A DNA stretch of 64,000 nt, from the NCBI GenBank assembly GCA_963828705.1, contig CAWHGA010000032.1, positions 7,058 through 71,057 on the forward strand, in the 5' to 3' direction. The stretch's first letter is position 1, and the number at the start of each line of letters is the position of its first letter. The notes below the pieces were generated by a model. The model had not been told where the DNA came from. It saw only the letters and a program-made list of their open reading frames with translations, and searched no databases. Positions 38,942-46,197 of this stretch are shown piece by piece. The DNA is from an uncultured delta proteobacterium. GTDB lineage: Bacteria > Desulfobacterota > Syntrophobacteria > Syntrophobacterales > Syntrophobacteraceae. The translations under genes were made by a program, and so were the position numbers.

Positions 38942-39015
38942 ACGCAAAAGATGTTCTGGTTGGTTTTCCCCATGACGAGAAGTAGGATGTTGCTCTATTG
39001 GAAAAAGGAGGCTGT

Positions 39016-39615
39016 ATGGGGCTCACACCGGCACAGGAAAAGGTTTACCAGTTTGTCCGGAACTTCATTCTCCTGCATGGATATGCACCCTCTTACGAGG
39101 AAATCCGCACTCATCTGGGGTTTCGATCCTTAAACGCCGTCTACAAGCACCTAAGAGCAATAGAAGAGCGCGGATTCCTCAAAATCCCTGGGAGTAATCG
39201 AAAACGTGCTCTCGAGCTTATGCCTTTACACACTGGGGCCGCATCCATTCCATTCCTGGGAATAGTTGCAGCCGGAACTCCCATTGAGGCAGTTGAGATC
39301 CCGGAGTCCGTCGAAGTGCCAGAGAGTTTCCTCGGAAATGGCAATAACTTTGCCCTGCGGGTCCGGGGAGATTCCATGATCGAGGAAGGAATCCGCGAGG
39401 GAGATATCCTGATCATCGCCAAGAAATCCCATGCTGAGAACGGCCAAACCGTTGTGGCTCTGGTTCGAGGCGAGGCAACCGTAAAGAAATTCTATCACCA
39501 GGGTGGGGAGGTTGAACTGAGGCCTGCAAACAGCCAAATGCAACCTATCCGAGCAGCTGGAACCGATGTTGAGATTGTTGGAACAGTAGTCGGCCTGTTG
39601 CGCCACTATCGCTAG
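39016..39615 (+). CDS. lexA: LexA repressor (wHTH and S24 autopeptidase)
   Basis: LTPAQEKVYQFVRNFILLHGYAPSYEEIRTHLGFRSLNAVYKHLRAIEERGFL. The Ser/Lys dyad context is RVRGDSMIEEGI and GEATVKKF. SD AAAGGAGG upstream of ATG 39016. Confidence 0.9.
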   Translation: MGLTPAQEKVYQFVRNFILLHGYAPSYEEIRTHLGFRSLNAVYKHLRAIEERGFLKIPGSNRKRALELMPLHTGAASIPFLGIVAAGTPIEAVEIPESVEVPESFLGNGNNFALRVRGDSMIEEGIREGDILIIAKKSHAENGQTVVALVRGEATVKKFYHQGGEVELRPANSQMQPIRAAGTDVEIVGTVVGLLRHYR

Positions 39616-39853: not shown

Positions 39854-40214
39854 TCAGTCACATTGGCACAGGGGGGTGGCCGTCGTCGTGGAATTCATTG
39901 ACCCGCCGCGAGTCGTGAAACAGGGCGAACAACGCGACCACATCGCGGTCGGCCCCGTTGGTCTCAGCCACACGTAATCCGTTCTACCAATCACCCGCGC
40001 CCAGTGGAACAGCTCCGTGGTCGCCCCGAACGGGCAGAGTGTAGCCGCGGAGGATCTCGACCATGATGGCAGCCATGTCATGCAAGCGATTCACCTCCAC
40101 CGCGTAACGCTGGGCATAAGCGGCACCCAACCACGCCGCCGATGCGCCCAAAGAAATGCTGCCAAATTCCCCAGTGTGGTTGGGTGTCTGCTTCCAATTG
40201 CTAGATCCAATCAC
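39854..40214 (-). pseudogene. Decayed fragment of an HD-like phosphohydrolase-family gene (several frame and stop disruptions)
   Basis: Minus-strand pieces ...ELFHWARVI.. and ..NGLRVAETNGADRDVVALFALFHDSRRVNEFHDDGH.. lie in different frames and are interrupted by TAG. Family assignment is from memory only. Confidence 0.3.
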
Positions 40215-40636
40215 GCGCAGCCTTCTGGTGCCTTGATCACTGGCTTGTCATTCGTTGGATCGGCAGAAGGTTCCCCAAAGAAATGCACTGCCTGGTATAC
40301 CCACCACGCCCTCAGTGAACTCATTCCATCTTCCTCACAGATCTTCTGAAGCAACCGATCCGCCACTTCTCGATAGGTTCCTTCGTCAAGAAGACGTTCA
40401 CGCATGAGCTGATAAAGTGCATCGTGGACCAGAGATCCCCGCATGAAGTTTAGGGTGTCAATCGTCGGTCCAGAGGGACCGTCCCATGCGTAGCCCTTCT
40501 TGATGGTCAGAATCCCGTCCGTTGTCAGCGCTAGATAATCTGTGTCAATTGGAATCGGCGGCTTTATACTGATTCGCAGGGTGTAGCTTTCTTTGAGCTG
40601 GTATTTATAGCCAGCCCTATACGCGATGCATTCCAT
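40211..40636 (-). CDS. DUF1353-domain protein (phage-associated family)
   Basis: The GYAWDGPSGPTIDT... and SLVHDALYQL motifs. It lies downstream of the tail-fibre-like gene on the same strand. Confidence 0.7.
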   Translation of the reverse strand: MECIAYRAGYKYQLKESYTLRISIKPPIPIDTDYLALTTDGILTIKKGYAWDGPSGPTIDTLNFMRGSLVHDALYQLMRERLLDEGTYREVADRLLQKICEEDGMSSLRAWWVYQAVHFFGEPSADPTNDKPVIKAPEGCA

Positions 40637-40971
40637 ATGCGTTTCCCTCAAGCGTTTGGCCGGATCGCATCCGACGACTTAGGTTCGTAGGCCCCAAGCA
40701 CGCGGCGAAGTTGTTAAATATACGATGATTATTGAACATGAATCTCAATCGGTATCCCTATCTGTAAGGAAGGTGCTGAAAACAGGGTGGTGATCCGAAA
40801 CCTGTTTCGCCTGGCTTGGGCTCAAACCGAAGGCCTCATTGAACCTGAAGGCCCCCTACCCATTGCAGCATGGCAGCGTTCTGGGAAGTGCCCCGTACAG
40901 ACCGCCATACCGTGGTGGTGTGGGGACTGGGGGAACCCGCCAGCTATCCGTTACAGCCATTCTTGCTCGGC

Positions 40972-42356
40972 TCACTGGGCTATCCGGGCCAACCTCCCAT
41001 CTGCACCGGATTCCCTGAGCCGCTTCACTTCGGTTTTGAGATCTGACAGTTCTTGCATGAGTTCTTGATTGACCTGCTGCTGTGCCTCTGGATGGCTTCC
41101 TGCTGTCCTTGATGGCCTCCTGCTGCTCTTTAACGGTGACCTGCTGTTCTTTGACCACCTTGGTCAAAACGGCCACCACGTCCATGGGACTCATTCCCTT
41201 GCGGTCCTTGGTGGCCACCAGCTCCGGCACATCCTCGGCGATGAACCCCACGTGCCGTTCATCTTCCCCGGCCTTGTATTTGAATGTCACCGGGTTCAGA
41301 CCTGCAAGCGTCTTCACGGCGGCGTCAGCACCCAACTCCGCGATGTCGTCCTTGTACTCCCGGCTGGAGGCATCGGTCCAGGCTCCCCCTGCCGACACAT
41401 AGGCTCCATTGGCCATATGCAGGGGATAACTGGGGGCTACCCCGAACCCTACTTTGCCATCATATTTCAGATGCATTCTGGTGGTCGCGTCGCAGACAGT
41501 GCCGACCGGGCAGTTGCTCCTGGTCATCACGCGGTAGCCCATGGCCCCCGAGCCTGCAATCACCGCCTTGAGATCCGATGATTTCTGCACCCAGCCGCCA
41601 TTCACCTCGTCCCACACCGCCCCCGATGACAAGAAGAAATTGTTCTCCCCATTCGATGTGATCCAGCCACCGGTATCGGTGCCGTCGAGCGAAAAGTGCA
41701 GCTGGGACTTGGAGATCCCGCCCCCCGACACATCCACGCCATAGGAAGGGAGAAGGCCTATCCCCAGGGAGCCGTCGAGTTGCAATTTCCGCGTGTCGAA
41801 TTCCCCGTAGATGAAGGGATCGGTGCAATGCACCACCAGAATAGCAGTTGTCGATGTAGAGTTTGTTGGAGCCGGTTTCGCTGTATCCTGCATCATAGCC
41901 CAGAAAAACATTCCGAGATCCTGTGGTGTTAGAGATCCGGCAGAGCGCCCGATGAAACTATTGGTCCCAGTGGTGTTACAGTATCCGGCAGATGCCCGAT
42001 GAAACTATTGTCGTACCCAGTGGTGTTAGAGTATCCGGCATGATGACCCGATGAAACTATTGTCGTACCCAGTGGTGTTATAGTATCCGGCACATGCCCG
42101 ATGAAACTATTGCAGTACCCAGTGGTGTTAGAGTATCCGGCATATGACCCGATGAAACTATTGTAGCTCCCAGTGGTGTTAGAGTATCCGGCATATACCC
42201 GATGAAGGTATCGTAGTGATCTCCAGCTGGGAGACTGTGTGCAGCGTCCAATCCAAGCCACGTATCGGTGTCGGCCTCGGAATACGCCCATGCTCTCCCC
42301 GTCGATGCGATCAGCATCAGTCCTGCCACTGCCAGCAATAGAATCGTCTTTCTCAT
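40972..42356 (-). pseudogene. Secreted tail-fibre-like protein with GYSNTTG-x3-FIG repeats and a C-terminal S74 intramolecular-chaperone domain; multiply frame-broken
   Basis: Start at 42356 after GGGAGGAA. Signal peptide MRKTILLLAVAGLMLIASTGRAWA. Repeats AGYSNTTGSYNSFIG follow. Pieces NVFLGYDAGYSETGSNKLYIDN, PFIYGEFDTRKLQLDG and the S74-like SSREYKDDIAEL...NPVTFKYK...ERHVGFIAEDVPELV...MDVVAVLTKVVKEQQ, plus the coiled-coil end ...LKTEVKRLRES...IAQ*, lie in at least 5 alternating frames (ORFs 42078..42440, 41929..42291, 41460..41828, 40856..41911). Confidence 0.7.
41925..42215. repeat. Tandem repeat array, six units of 47-52 nt (coding repeat of the tail-fibre-like gene)
   Basis: The landmark CCCGATGAA recurs at 41948, 41995, 42047, 42097, 42148 and 42198, giving spacings of 47, 52, 50, 51 and 50 nt. 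Confidence 0.85.
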
Positions 42357-42583: not shown

Positions 42584-43215
42584 GATAAGAGGGGCTTTTG
42601 GGGCACCCTCCTAGAGTTTTTGCCGCGTGAAGCCGACGCGAGAAGCCGAGTTGAACTGAACCGCTGAGCGGTGGGAAGACACTGGGATTGGGGATATGGA
42701 GAATCAGCAGCCGACTCGCGCTTACTCGGCCACATTGTGCATGGTTATCGCCATCGGCGCAAGGATGGAGTGGGGCTGGGGGTGAGAGCTGGGGTCTGCT
42801 GACCGGTGGCTGCCTCCAAACCCGGTCATATTGAGCAAAAGTGCCTCTCGTAGAACCGTAAAACTGAACATGACTTGGGAGGGTAAGGGGTTGGTATGGT
42901 ATTGGGGACAGCGTGTTGTGTTGCGGTTCTCCCAGAGGGGGATTCAGTCGGGCCGGCTCGGAACCAAGCCTATGATTCGGATATGTTGCCCCCTCAGTCC
43001 GCGAAGTGGAAAACGCCATATGGGAGAGATCATCTGATTTTATTTAGAAAGAAAGATATAGTGTGGTTCGGTTTCCGGCTGGACTCTGCAATCTATAGAT
43101 CGGTAGGGGGCCTCTTTTCGAACTCGCCCTACCGGTAAGCTTTCATGCTGTATTGTAGATACACTCCTTGAGCGGGTATTGATTTTTTCCGTCCATCAAA
43201 AGTCAGCAACAGACT

Positions 43216-43243
43216 TGAAACAAAACTGATTATTGTTCGTCTA
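43216..43243 (+). promoter_or_regulatory. ECF-type promoter motif upstream of the ECF sigma gene (possible autoregulation)
   Basis: TGAAAC (43216-43221), 16 nt, CGTCTA (43238-43243). Caveat: the -10 lies only about 15 nt from the ATG, so the SD (43246-43253) would sit at the very 5' end of the transcript. Confidence 0.35.
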
Positions 43244-43257
43244 ATGGGAGGAGTCCG

Positions 43258-43827
43258 ATGGAAAATCCGGTGAACGGGGTCCAGGAAGAGCCCGGGCTTG
43301 CCCTGCCCCGCTCCGACGATCACGAAGCCTTCACCCTGTTCTACCGGCAGACAGCCGCCGGCATTTATGCCTACCTGTACCGTCTCTGTGGTTGCCCGCA
43401 CTTGGCCGAAGACCTTTTGCAGGAAACCTTTCTGGCGGTCTTCAGGGGTTTGGCTGATTTCAAGGCCCGGTCGTCGCCGCGGACATGGTTGTACGCAATT
43501 GCCACCAATAAGTTCCGCGACCATTGCCGAAACAGATGGGGGAAGGTCGAATTGGATTCAGAATCGCTCGAAGCGCTGCCTTCTTCCGGGCCCGTGCCCC
43601 TGGAAGAGGTAATACAAAGGGAAGAATCCCGGCGGATACACGAGGCAATTCTGGCCCTTCCTCCGGAGCTGAGGACCGCCTTGCTGCTGGTTCGCTTCGA
43701 GGAGCTGAAATACCTGGAGGCGGCGCAGATTCTCGGGACCACACTGTCAACGGTCCGCATGCGGGTCCATCGTGCCCATTGCATATTGGCGCAAACGCTG
43801 GGGGAGACAAGCCATGGACAGAGATGA
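43258..43827 (+). CDS. ECF (group 4) sigma-70 family RNA polymerase sigma factor
   Basis: Region 2 contains AEDLLQETFLAVFRGLADF and RTWLYAIATNKFRDHCR. Region 4 contains LPPELRTALLLVRFEELKYLEAAQILGTTLSTVRMRVHRA. Confidence 0.9.
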   Translation: MENPVNGVQEEPGLALPRSDDHEAFTLFYRQTAAGIYAYLYRLCGCPHLAEDLLQETFLAVFRGLADFKARSSPRTWLYAIATNKFRDHCRNRWGKVELDSESLEALPSSGPVPLEEVIQREESRRIHEAILALPPELRTALLLVRFEELKYLEAAQILGTTLSTVRMRVHRAHCILAQTLGETSHGQR

Positions 43828-44122
43828 GATCTTGCACCTGGTGACCGATGCACTCTGCGGCGAACTGGACGGGGAAGGAGAGGCACAAATGCAGGCCGCC
43901 CTGGCGGCCGACCCGGCCCTTGCCGCAGAAGCCAGGCGACTGGAGAGGATCTGGCAACGGCTCGGGAAGGTCTTGGACGAAGAACAACAGGAGCAGGCCG
44001 TTCTTACCCGCGTTTTCGATCGGATCGTCGAGCAGCACCACGCTGAACTCTCGGATGAAGAACTTGAGCAGGCCGCCGGCGGTATCTCCTCGATGCCGGA
44101 TGGCGAGCAGATAAAAAGATGA
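43814..44122 (+). CDS. Small soluble protein in the anti-sigma position, ending in a double-glycine (NHLP/Nif11-type) leader motif followed by a 12-aa tail
   Basis: The gene overlaps the sigma gene by 14 nt. The protein is MDRDEILHLVTDALCGELDGEGEAQMQAALAADPALAAEARRLERIW...AELSDEELEQAAGG|ISSMPDGEQIKR. Its C-terminal motif nearly matches the precursor's ELSEEQLSQAAGG. No hydrophobic segment is present. Confidence 0.6.
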   Translation: MDRDEILHLVTDALCGELDGEGEAQMQAALAADPALAAEARRLERIWQRLGKVLDEEQQEQAVLTRVFDRIVEQHHAELSDEELEQAAGGISSMPDGEQIKR

Positions 44123-45294
44123 ATCCCTCTGCGCCACTGCGGGAGAACCTTGAACGGCGCGAGCGCTTTCGGCGCAAGGTGCTTGTTTCCCTGGGCGCCA
44201 CAGGCAGCGAAATCGACAAACTGCTCGGGTATGGTTGCAGCCGTTTCGTCGGCAGGGAAGCTCCTTCCCTCCCCCTCGCCGATGAGCCCTTTGTCCGCGC
44301 GTGGCATGACTACGCGGAAGAGGCGGCCGGGCGCGGCGTTTTTCCGGTCCTGCGGGAAAAGCTGGTTCAGCTTCGCTTCCCGATCCGTGAAGGGATCAGT
44401 CGCGAGGATGGGTACCGGGCCGCAACCCTCAGGGGAAATCTCCCCGATCCCGAACAGACTGCCCTGGAACTCGCCGATCCCGAGGGGCTGAAGCTGTTCC
44501 TCCACGAAACCCCGGCCGGGACGATTCCGGTGCTTACGGTCCGGGACAGGAGTGATTTTACCGCCCTTTTATGTGCTCTGTCCATGCGCAACGAGCCGGT
44601 GCCGGTGCCGGAATCGAGGGGGGCGGCCATGATCTCCGGTCTGAACAACTGGGACCGGATCGCACGCCATCGTAGGGCCTGGGAGGCCGCCCACCCCTCC
44701 GAAGCAGCCGCGGACCAATGGCCGGCGGAATTCTCCCTTCTCATTGCGCACAGGGAACTCTACCAGGACCGGCTCATCATCCTGAACGAGGGCGGATACA
44801 GCGGCGTGCCGGCGGAAATGGTCGGCATGACGGATAAAGTCTGGCGCAGGGCGTCGCTCGTTATCCGCCTGGAGCATGAATGCGTCCACTATTTCACGAA
44901 GCGGGTGTTCGGCTCCATGAAAGATGCCATCCACGATGAATTCATTGCCGACTATGCAGGCATCGCCGCGGCCGCCGGCTCCTTTCGAGCCGACTGGTTC
45001 CTGCTTTTCATGGGCCTGGAAGACTTCCCGAACTACCGCCAGGGTGGCAGGCTGCAGAACTACCTGGGCAATCCGCAGCCCGACGCCGGGGTGTTCACCA
45101 TACTAAAGCGGCAGGTCAAGGAGGCTGCGGAGAATCTCGAACGCTTTGAGACAAGAATGCGGGCGGCCGAAGGCGCCGCCCGCCCCCGGCGCACCGAAAT
45201 GCTTTTGGCCCTGGCTGCCTTGCACATGGAAGAGTTGGCCTCGGCCGACGCGGGGAGGTTTATTGAAGAAGAGCTAATGGCTGTCGGCCACTGA
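44119..45294 (+). CDS. Hypothetical 391-aa protein with an HExxH motif (putative metallopeptidase)
   Basis: IRLEHECVHYF (HExxH) followed by HDEFIADYAG. The start is ATGA-coupled to the preceding ORF. No family recognised. Confidence 0.5.
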   Translation: MNPSAPLRENLERRERFRRKVLVSLGATGSEIDKLLGYGCSRFVGREAPSLPLADEPFVRAWHDYAEEAAGRGVFPVLREKLVQLRFPIREGISREDGYRAATLRGNLPDPEQTALELADPEGLKLFLHETPAGTIPVLTVRDRSDFTALLCALSMRNEPVPVPESRGAAMISGLNNWDRIARHRRAWEAAHPSEAAADQWPAEFSLLIAHRELYQDRLIILNEGGYSGVPAEMVGMTDKVWRRASLVIRLEHECVHYFTKRVFGSMKDAIHDEFIADYAGIAAAAGSFRADWFLLFMGLEDFPNYRQGGRLQNYLGNPQPDAGVFTILKRQVKEAAENLERFETRMRAAEGAARPRRTEMLLALAALHMEELASADAGRFIEEELMAVGH

Positions 45295-45415
45295 AGGGCA
45301 ATGAACCTTGAAACAAACCGGCTTTTTGTTCGTCCAAGAGTAAAGAGGCGGCGGTATCCCGGTACGTGCACGGGCGGGTGAGCAGACGTTTCAGTGACCC
45401 GAGAGAAGCATGACG

Positions 45416-45439
45416 GGAACACTAGGGCCGGCTGCCGTT
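45416..45439 (+). promoter_or_regulatory. ECF-type promoter motif upstream of the RiPP precursor
   Basis: GGAAC (45416-45420), 15 nt, CGTT (45436-45439), i.e. GGAAC-N16-GTT. It lies about 150 nt upstream of the precursor ATG. Confidence 0.45.
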
Positions 45440-45590
45440 CTCACACCCCGAGCGCGATTCGCTCCTTTGGCGGATGGGGGATACGTTATGAGTAGGCCGT
45501 ACTCGGGCGCCCGCGGTTGGGTGGCTCGCGACTGTAGGCGAAACGGCGTTGTTGGGAAGAACCTTACATTTTCACAAAAGGAGAAACAGC

Positions 45591-45959
45591 ATGAACGAGG
45601 AAGAGAAAGCGAAAGAACACGCGGAAGAGCAGGCCAAGAAGATGGAGCAGCTTATCGCCAAGACATGGGCGGACGAAGGGTTCAAGCAGAGGCTCATGTC
45701 TAACCCGGCGGCAGTGCTCAAGGAGGCCGGTGTGGAGGTACCCGAAAACGTCGAAGTGCGAGCGGTGGAGGACACCGACAAGGTATTTCACCTGGTACTG
45801 CCGCCGAAGCCCTCGGACGATGAACTTTCGGAGGAGCAGCTAAGCCAGGCGGCAGGCGGGCATCATCATGGGTGTGGTTGTGGGCATGGTTGTGGGTGTG
45901 GGGGTGGGTGTGGGTGTGTCGTCTTTTTTCCCGCGTGTCGTCGGCGTTGCTGTTGCTGA
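45591..45959 (+). CDS. NHLP (nitrile-hydratase-like leader peptide) family RiPP precursor; core HHHGCGCGHGCGCGGGCGCVVFFPACRRRCCC
   Basis: Leader ...LIAKTWADEGFKQRLMSNPAAVLKEAGVEVPENVEVRAVEDTDKVFHLVLPPKP...ELSEEQLSQAAGG is followed by a 32-aa core with 10 Cys and 4 His. SD AAAGGAG precedes ATG 45591. Confidence 0.85.
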   Translation: MNEEEKAKEHAEEQAKKMEQLIAKTWADEGFKQRLMSNPAAVLKEAGVEVPENVEVRAVEDTDKVFHLVLPPKPSDDELSEEQLSQAAGGHHHGCGCGHGCGCGGGCGCVVFFPACRRRCCC

Positions 45960-46197
45960 TGGCGCAGAGAGGCGAGCACTCACGATGGGGCTATCCCTTG
46001 CGCGATTTGCGATCCGGAAGTGTTGACATCTGACGCTGGCCGGGGGCCTCGGGGTAGCCTCGGCTCAGCGGAAGGGGGAGTGCGACGATCTGCAATTGTC
46101 TCAGGACAAAAACCAGATAACGCCAGGCACCTCCATTATGGGACTCCTGCCCATCGACTCCGGCCAAAGCCAGCAGGCCGGGGAGTCATGTACTACC

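Follow-up and report, generated by a model that had tools for sequence, protein, structure and literature searches.

A sigma-adjacent small protein with a C39-type double-glycine signal: a candidate soluble anti-sigma factor of peptide export clusters

A 64,000-nucleotide stretch of DNA from an uncultured delta proteobacterium (contig CAWHGA010000032.1, positions 7,058 to 71,057; "the window" below) encodes, immediately behind the gene for an extracytoplasmic function (ECF) sigma factor, a 102-residue protein that joins an anti-sigma-type domain to a double-glycine (GG) signal of the sort cut by C39-peptidase ATP-binding cassette (ABC) exporters, and that ends in a short tail. We give about an even chance to the idea that this protein is a soluble pseudo-precursor ECF anti-sigma factor, in which case C39 cleavage would free the sigma factor and the protein encoded next door, DUF7005, may degrade the remnant. 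An earlier sequence-only reading of this DNA had singled out the small protein for its gene position and its GG tail; it did not include the conserved partner DUF7005, the ECF promoter shared by the sigma and precursor operons, or the independent analogue in Bacillota, all of which are described here.

The small protein and its double-glycine signal

The sigma factor gene (43258..43827, + strand, 189 residues) is recognized by Pfam Sigma70_r2 (E 6e-19) and Sigma70_r4_2 (E 1e-14) and by TIGR02937 (E 3e-25). The open reading frame (ORF) of the small protein follows on the same strand (43814-44122; ATG at 43814, stop codon at 44120-44122), overlaps the sigma gene by 14 nucleotides (43814-43827) as the sequence-only reading had stated, and has a GGGGAGA ribosome-binding site 7-8 nucleotides 5' of its ATG. 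The DUF7005 ORF (44119..45294, + strand, 391 residues, a candidate metallo-enzyme; Pfam PF22541, E 5.6e-137) starts inside the stop codon of the small-protein gene, an ATGA overlap of the kind that gives translational coupling. The small protein, whose whole sequence is MDRDEILHLVTDALCGELDGEGEAQMQAALAADPALAAEARRLERIWQRLGKVLDEEQQEQAVLTRVFDRIVEQHHAELSDEELEQAAGG followed by ISSMPDGEQIKR, begins MDRDEILHLV, and its C-terminal part reads AELSDEELEQAAGG up to the second glycine and ISSMPDGEQIKR after it. The claims that it has no hydrophobic segment and that only 12 residues follow the GG were both correct; no hydrophobic or membrane segment is present, the highest Kyte-Doolittle 19-residue mean being 0.39. 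Three parts can be distinguished, all on the + strand: residues 1-74 (43814..44035), an anti-sigma-domain-like helical region with helices at 3-14, 20-32, 34-52 and 56-74; residues 78-90, ELSDEELEQAAGG (44045..44083), the predicted double-glycine C39 recognition and cleavage signal; and residues 91-102 with the stop codon (44084..44122), a short hydrophilic tail that is predicted to be disordered. Ninety residues precede the predicted GG cut, the same number as in the leader of the neighbouring NHLP precursor (45591..45959), which ends ELSEEQLSQAAGG.

C39 peptidases recognize leaders through Leu at -12, Glu at -8, Leu at -7, a hydrophobic residue at -4 and the two glycines; leader positions -4 to -11 adopt a helix of two turns, and LahT150 needs no more than the last 13-14 residues of the leader for cleavage (PMC6363468). 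The small protein presents this consensus as L79, E83, L84, A87, G89 and G90, and its AlphaFold2 model has a short helix at residues 81-87 (positions -10 to -4). The same C-terminal segment matches the ends of the CTB bacteriocin and Nif11 leader models, and in six loci it is almost identical to the motif of the cognate precursor or precursors.

About 35 relatives of the small protein (98-123 residues, 28-94% identity) were found by word-indexed and exhaustive protein searches, and a metagenome scan with a narrower family alignment gave six loci; conservation was computed on a 30-sequence alignment. Among all 13-residue windows of that alignment, residues 78-90 score highest for conservation, with 3.54 bits per column; the best window in the N-terminal anti-sigma core reaches 3.10, and the tail, which is the least conserved region, 1.8. 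The pattern L(-12)x3[E/D/Q](-8)L(-7)xx[A/V](-4)xGG is kept in 29 of the 30 members, down to 28% identity, so that a lack of GG tails among homologues, which the sequence-only reading had named as evidence against itself, is not what the family displays. The sole close homologue without the motif, P0012, was considered as a genuine GG-less relative and set aside: it is a truncated copy beside a transposase gene, at a locus without DUF7005. In these decayed P0012 loci (L088, 9431-10261; also L089 and L001) a single frame without stops runs through the sigma gene and the truncated gene of the small protein, possibly a sigma/anti-sigma fusion that arose from an indel; an AAA_14/DUF4143 gene and a DDE transposase gene are its neighbours.

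A tail of 8-20 residues follows the GG in all 29 motif-bearing members, none of which ends at the GG itself. The tails are rich in D, P, K and E and contain no Cys, and thus no tail of this family offers the conserved modifiable Cys of a core of a peptide made by the ribosome and modified after translation (RiPP). The first residue after the GG (P1') is I, V, T or L in 26 of the 29, and in the window protein the AlphaFold2 confidence (predicted local distance difference test, pLDDT) falls below 50 for residues 94-102. A Nif11-leader precursor of Stigonema (L018, 15740-16012) likewise has a short, hydrophilic, Cys-free core after its GG (NRDGDKTKISIRQE), similar to the small-protein tails.

The N-terminal region has a different affinity. 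The N-terminal region of the NCBIfam anti-sigmaE model PRK13920 is matched by 19 of 24 family members (best E 6.9e-8, residues 5-76), with a score of 32 bits against a whole-protein cut-off of 225 bits; NF052375, "anti-sigma factor", is matched by 17 of the 24 and Pfam zf-HC2 by four. A bacteriocin leader model is matched by 12 of the 24, at the C-terminal motif only. AlphaFold2 predicts the helices at 3-14, 20-32 and 34-52 with pLDDT above 90 and that at 56-74 with about 75. When this model was compared with known structures by Foldseek, 11 of the 19 matches listed were ECF anti-sigma chains taken from sigma complexes, RslA (TM score 0.68, 2.8 A, 56 columns), RsiW, MucA, RskA and ChrR among them; all E-values exceed 1, as expected for a helical core of about 50 residues. 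A profile of the N-terminal region alone, run against PDB sequences, found no significant match. The position of the gene is also that of an ECF anti-sigma factor: the sigma gene lies directly upstream and overlaps in the window and in L003-L007, L094 and L096/L097. The suggestion that this is an anti-sigma protein is favoured by position, by the PRK13920 matches and by the anti-sigma chains among the structural neighbours, and is held back by sub-threshold scores and Foldseek E-values above 1.

Membership of the families that might otherwise account for the protein was also examined. The HxxxCxxC zinc ligands of the zinc-binding anti-sigma (ZAS) proteins are absent, the matching positions reading A-x3-D-x2-L (AALAADPAL), and the small protein is thus not a ZAS member. 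There was no match to the FlgM family. The match to the leader model TIGR03798 is limited to residues 74-90, and a profile of residues 1-72 searched against 23,643 ORFs from 87 loci rich in NHLP and Nif11 precursors found family members only, with no NHLP or Nif11 precursor matched. A profile match to a Nif11 protein, PDB 9zn4 (E 0.0012), had raised the possibility that the whole protein is a Nif11-like leader; this was rejected, as the match vanishes without residues 73-102. The small protein is not a member of the FlgM, ZAS, NHLP or Nif11 families. Since its N-terminal part is anti-sigma-like and its GG match is confined to the C-terminus, it is a chimera of an anti-sigma-type domain, a double-glycine signal and a short tail.

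A conserved module, its promoters and a second family

The order sigma factor, small protein, DUF7005, with overlapping genes, is found on every contig long enough to show it, the decayed P0012 loci excepted, and wherever the contig sufficed the cluster around this triad includes double-glycine-leader precursors as well as a C39 exporter. The full organization of the window, C39 exporter included, is repeated in L096 and L097, and a cognate C39 exporter in the same cluster is also found in L010, L017 and L096-L100. What stands behind the module varies: a short GG-leader precursor in L006, a Nif11 precursor and two radical-SAM genes in L093, and NHLP precursors with radical-SAM genes in L094.

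The most telling comparison comes from a second set of loci, in Bacillota (L010; L017, Desulfocucumis palustris; L098; L100). Here the sigma factor is a different one, BldN-like (TIGR02952) and 25% identical to that of the window, and directly after its gene lies one for a protein of 103-125 residues (L010, 9626-9970; L017, 9524-9943; L098, 10001-10327; L100, 8351-8677). The N-terminal region of these proteins shows no similarity to the window-type family or to known anti-sigma models, and hhalign aligns the two families over only 20 columns around the GG. All 13 Bacillota members nevertheless end in L..[ED]L[DE]xVAGG followed by I[ND]xxRxxPPEE, with the tail fixed at 11 residues and an aliphatic P1' in 13 of 13. 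In the four loci examined (4/4) the gene order is HlyD, C39 exporter, ABC2, sigma factor, small protein, DUF7005 and NHLP precursor or precursors. The best reason to assign the C-terminal signal to sigma regulation is that two unrelated sigma-adjacent proteins in the same neighbourhood both carry it, and conservation of the design in two unrelated lineages suggests a hitherto undescribed switch linking gene activation to exporter activity.

A zero-mismatch search for TGAAAC-N16-CGTC finds just two sites in the whole 64 kb window, both on the + strand: P1 (43216..43241), in front of the operon of sigma factor, small protein and DUF7005, and P2 (45309..45334), between the DUF7005 and precursor genes and thus in front of the NHLP precursor and its maturation genes. 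P1 and P2 share the extended identity CTTGAAACAAA..TTGTTCGTC.AA. Elsewhere, TGAAACAAA-N11-TTCGTCTAAGAG precedes sigma genes, precursor operons or both in L006, L007, L088, L091/L094 and L096/L097: P1-type motifs stand upstream of the sigma gene in L007, L096 and L097, and P2-type motifs at the equivalent position in L006, L088, L091/L094 and L096/L097, so that at least six loci have it before sigma and precursor operons; L091/L094 has a pair of sites, of which one, on the minus strand, precedes an operon with radical-SAM and NHLP genes. Given that the motif is conserved in front of both, the sigma factor very probably drives its own operon as well as the precursor genes. The predicted P2 transcript would begin with an untranslated leader of about 250 nucleotides (45335-45590) before the ATG of the NHLP precursor. 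Rfam gave no match in 43000-46400, and scans for terminators and sigma-70 promoters gave background levels only, with no terminator-like site in the leader.

DUF7005 is widespread, with more than 1,679 homologues at about 50% identity in cyanobacteria, Desulfobacterota, Bacillota, Longimicrobia, Actinomycetota and others. A 121-sequence alignment shows invariant H253-E254-x-x-H257, D273-E274 and D278 (HExxH-x16-E), and the AlphaFold2 model is of high confidence (pLDDT 95, predicted TM score 0.92). Foldseek against the PDB returned no match at E < 1, a sequence profile against the PDB none at all, and NCBIfam no family, the alpha-ketoglutarate HExxH family included. The protein is a regular member of NHLP/Nif11 export cassettes (80 genome loci, L008-L087), which in cyanobacteria run DUF7005, cyclic-nucleotide (cNMP) protein, HlyD, peptidase-containing ABC transporter (PCAT), ABC2; in most cyanobacterial loci a gene for a MinD/ParA-like ATPase lies upstream. 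The majority of these 80 loci have no sigma module; its basic role is therefore, as judged from its gene neighbourhoods, in the export or maturation of GG-leader peptides, with the sigma/anti-sigma pair an accessory module placed in front. In three loci a periplasmic-binding-protein gene (Pfam Peripla_BP_5/6) adjoins HlyD/PCAT/ABC2 (L098, 1794-2936; L100, 308-1411; L094, 18620-19786), and similar-looking ORFs, not scanned with Pfam, lie just upstream of DUF7005 in L009 (8703-9962) and L052 (8638-9879); no counterpart was found among the window ORFs scanned.

The remainder of the window cluster is on the + strand as well. The NHLP-leader precursor at 45591..45959 (TIGR03793, E 2e-26), of the thiazole/oxazole-modified microcin (TOMM) type, has a Cys/Gly-rich core of 32 residues behind its 90-residue leader. 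It is followed by the TOMM maturation genes (46340..50045; TIGR03882, TIGR03604, TIGR03605), which comprise a C-D cyclodehydratase (46340-48591) and a SagB dehydrogenase (48626-50045), both apparently frameshifted. Then come a cNMP-binding transport-associated protein (50263-50832; TIGR03896, E 3e-41), the HlyD protein of the NHLP system (51058-51708; TIGR03794, E 6e-63), the C39-peptidase ABC exporter or PCAT (51705..53897; TIGR03796, 1112 bits; Peptidase_C39, E 2e-37) and a second ABC subunit of the TIGR03797 type (53955..56850), frameshifted near 55515. The C39 domain of the exporter (residues 16-144) has all four catalytic residues, Q21, C27, H100 and D116, and its active site is competent as judged by the residues encoded. 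Compared with the intact homologous locus L096, the frame switches lie near 47461-47470 in the cyclodehydratase, near 49035 in SagB and near 55515 in ABC2, the last being one extra base in "aatagcc"; the sigma factor, small protein, DUF7005, precursor, HlyD and C39 exporter genes have no frame break. Upstream of the cluster, on the minus strand (40211-41911), are genes for a DUF1353 protein and for a 351-residue protein with a Peptidase_S74 (endosialidase chaperone) domain; both proteins are of types characteristic of phage tail-fibre genes. LexA is encoded at 38998-39615. The flanks of the cluster hold only LexA, DUF1353, the tail-fibre chaperone domain, PsiE, a Na/H exchanger and a P-type ATPase, with no receptor or kinase gene for a putative 12-residue signal among them.

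Proposed mechanism and competing explanations

From the architecture, the conservation of the motif, the shared promoters, the triad and the C39 residues, all of which are observed, we infer sigma binding, cleavage, a role for DUF7005 and a regulatory logic as follows. Residues 1 to about 75, the anti-sigma-type helical domain, would hold the co-translated sigma factor; residues 78-90 would be a complete double-glycine signal for the cluster's own C39 exporter, and residues 91-102 a short, disposable "cargo". Once free, the sigma factor would transcribe its own operon from the promoter at 43216 and the NHLP precursor/TOMM operon from that at 45309. When the cytoplasmic C39 domain is present and free of real precursors, it would recognize residues 79-90 and cut after G90; the remnant ending in ...AAGG would then be cleared away, a plausible agent being DUF7005, the HExxH protein whose gene is always next door and which would serve as a leader-clearing enzyme, and loss of the remnant would release the sigma factor. 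Real precursors are handled at the same C39 site, and their competition with the anti-sigma factor would provide negative feedback. Precursor synthesis would in this way track the availability of exporters, transcription being high while exporters are idle and damped when they are saturated.

The sequence-only reading had offered two forms of this idea, export or cleavage. C39 ABC exporters export the part C-terminal to the GG, and the leader stays in the cytoplasm (PMC6363468). FlgM-like export of the whole anti-sigma factor is accordingly unlikely; only the 12-residue tail could leave the cell, and the link to the exporter would have to be cleavage-coupled.

Several points weigh against the cleavage mechanism. 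The similarity to anti-sigma factors does not reach any curated family cut-off, and no Foldseek match has an E-value as low as 1. If only the 12 C-terminal residues were lost, an N-terminal anti-sigma domain would stay active, so that an additional, inferred step that degrades residues 1-90 is needed. The enzyme proposed for that step might be there for other reasons: adjacency of DUF7005 may be just the cassette boundary, as most cassettes have no sigma module, and an HExxH protein of a RiPP cluster need not be a protease but can be an alpha-ketoglutarate oxygenase (PMC12636437). The well-conserved tail of the Bacillota proteins (INxHRGYPPEE) hints that the tail itself is functional. Finally, three genes of the window cluster are frameshifted, and this copy may be inactive or decaying, or the breaks may be assembly indel errors; what is concluded at the level of the family is independent of the frameshifts in the window copy.

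The need for a degradation step would disappear if the GG helix served for docking and not for cleavage, tethering the anti-sigma factor or its sigma complex to either the C39 domain or DUF7005, where precursors compete with it, so that partner switching rather than proteolysis frees or sequesters the sigma factor. We regard this as possible though unlikely. The hydrophobic positions at -4, -7 and -12, which mediate C39 binding (PMC6363468), are conserved, as docking would require, and DUF7005 is always adjacent. Docking fits less well with retention of both glycines in 29/30 and 13/13 members, as these are needed for the narrow catalytic pocket and not for the distal binding groove, and with the constant presence of a tail of at least eight residues, no member ending at the GG, which is what a scissile site would look like.

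It is rather less probable that DUF7005 acts in place of the exporter, as a cytoplasmic metalloprotease for GG-leader peptides that directly degrades or processes the anti-sigma factor. The strict adjacency of sigma factor, small protein and DUF7005 with overlapping genes in both families, the invariant HExxH-x16-E and the occurrence of DUF7005 throughout GG-leader export cassettes would all agree with such a protease, but its fold matches no known peptidase, it has no family annotation that would make it one, the motif in the small protein is a textbook C39 signal, and DUF7005 occurs mostly without the sigma module.

A role for the tail could also be combined with the cleavage mechanism. The small protein would then be both anti-sigma factor and pheromone precursor, one C39 cut freeing the sigma factor and exporting the tail, and DUF7005 would be a clearing enzyme of new fold for GG-terminated leaders, this remnant included; we think this improbable, and no more probable is the accompanying proposal that the conserved tail, ISSMPDGEQIKR here and INxHRGYPPEE in Bacillota, is the signal exported.

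The sequence-only reading's own alternative, a second precursor that carries a short exported signal peptide (ISSMPDGEQIKR in the window) with no part in sigma regulation, is disfavoured and appears quite improbable. The tail is always present, P1' is aliphatic in 26/29 and 13/13 members, the Bacillota tail is well conserved, and pheromones with a GG leader are known, ComC for one. Against this, the N-terminal domain does not belong to a leader family, its profile matching no NHLP or Nif11 precursor among the 23,643 ORFs and the full proteins matching anti-sigma models; in the window-type family the tail is the least conserved part, variable in length and without Cys; the cluster flanks hold no kinase or receptor gene; and coupling of the small protein to an ECF sigma gene is without exception.

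Acidic, Ala-rich helical proteins can yield strings like ELxxxL..AAGG by chance, but a chance motif in an ordinary small anti-sigma factor is effectively refuted and deserves almost no credence, for the GG segment is the most conserved of the protein and is kept in 29/30 and 13/13 members of two non-homologous families, from which we judge that it is not fortuitous.

Significance and relation to known systems

Full-text literature searches returned no account of anti-sigma factors that carry a double-glycine signal or go with a C39 or peptidase-containing ABC transporter, none of ECF control of NHLP clusters and none of DUF7005; peptidases and leader peptides are both absent from the main text of the ECF reclassification paper (PMC7826278). 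If the proposed mechanism is true, it would add a new input to ECF sigma factors, in the form of a soluble anti-sigma factor that looks to a peptide exporter like one of its substrates, and toxic or costly peptide precursors would be made only when the exporter can accept them. It would explain how many cryptic NHLP, Nif11 and other double-glycine clusters are switched on, a practical obstacle in natural-product discovery, and deletion of the small gene or mutation of its GG should then activate such clusters or lock them. It would also give the first functional handle on DUF7005, which is present in most of these export cassettes. Were the small protein both anti-sigma factor and pheromone precursor, it would be the first sigma switch driven by a type I/C39 exporter, with a function for DUF7005.

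The closest parallels in logic are two secretion-linked sigma antagonists. As with FlgM and sigma-28, anti-sigma activity would be tied to the state of a secretion machine whose substrates the sigma factor controls; FlgM, unrelated in sequence, is exported whole by the flagellar type III system, whereas here the machine would be a C39 ABC exporter and the feature in question a cleavage motif. BtrA (BspR), the antagonist of BtrS in Bordetella, is likewise an ECF sigma antagonist that is a secretion-system substrate, as we propose for the small protein; it uses a type III system with a chaperone, lacks a double-glycine signal, is not cleaved and is not connected with peptide natural products (PMC10732220).

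In its proposed course, a site-specific cut that starts destruction of the anti-sigma factor and a follow-up protease that clears the remnant, the mechanism would resemble that of RseA, RsiW and RsiV. Those three are membrane proteins, and DegS, PrsW or signal peptidase cuts them before RasP or RseP and ClpXP do, whereas the small protein is soluble and an exporter's cytoplasmic C39 domain is proposed to make the first cut. With the C39-processed leaders of ComC/ComAB, NHLP, Nif11 and LahT it shares the L(-12)x3E(-8)L(-7)xxV/A(-4)xGG signal, the predicted two-turn helix and a cognate exporter (PMC6363468); in contrast to them, its "leader" is an anti-sigma-type domain and its "core" is short, hydrophilic and poorly conserved. 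Finally, RsrA is similar in being a cytoplasmic protein of about 100 residues with an anti-sigma helical domain, of the kind predicted for the small protein, and a gene that adjoins that of an ECF sigma factor, but RsrA senses redox state through Zn/Cys ligands, where the small protein has A, D and L at those positions and a C-terminal cleavage signal as its proposed input module.

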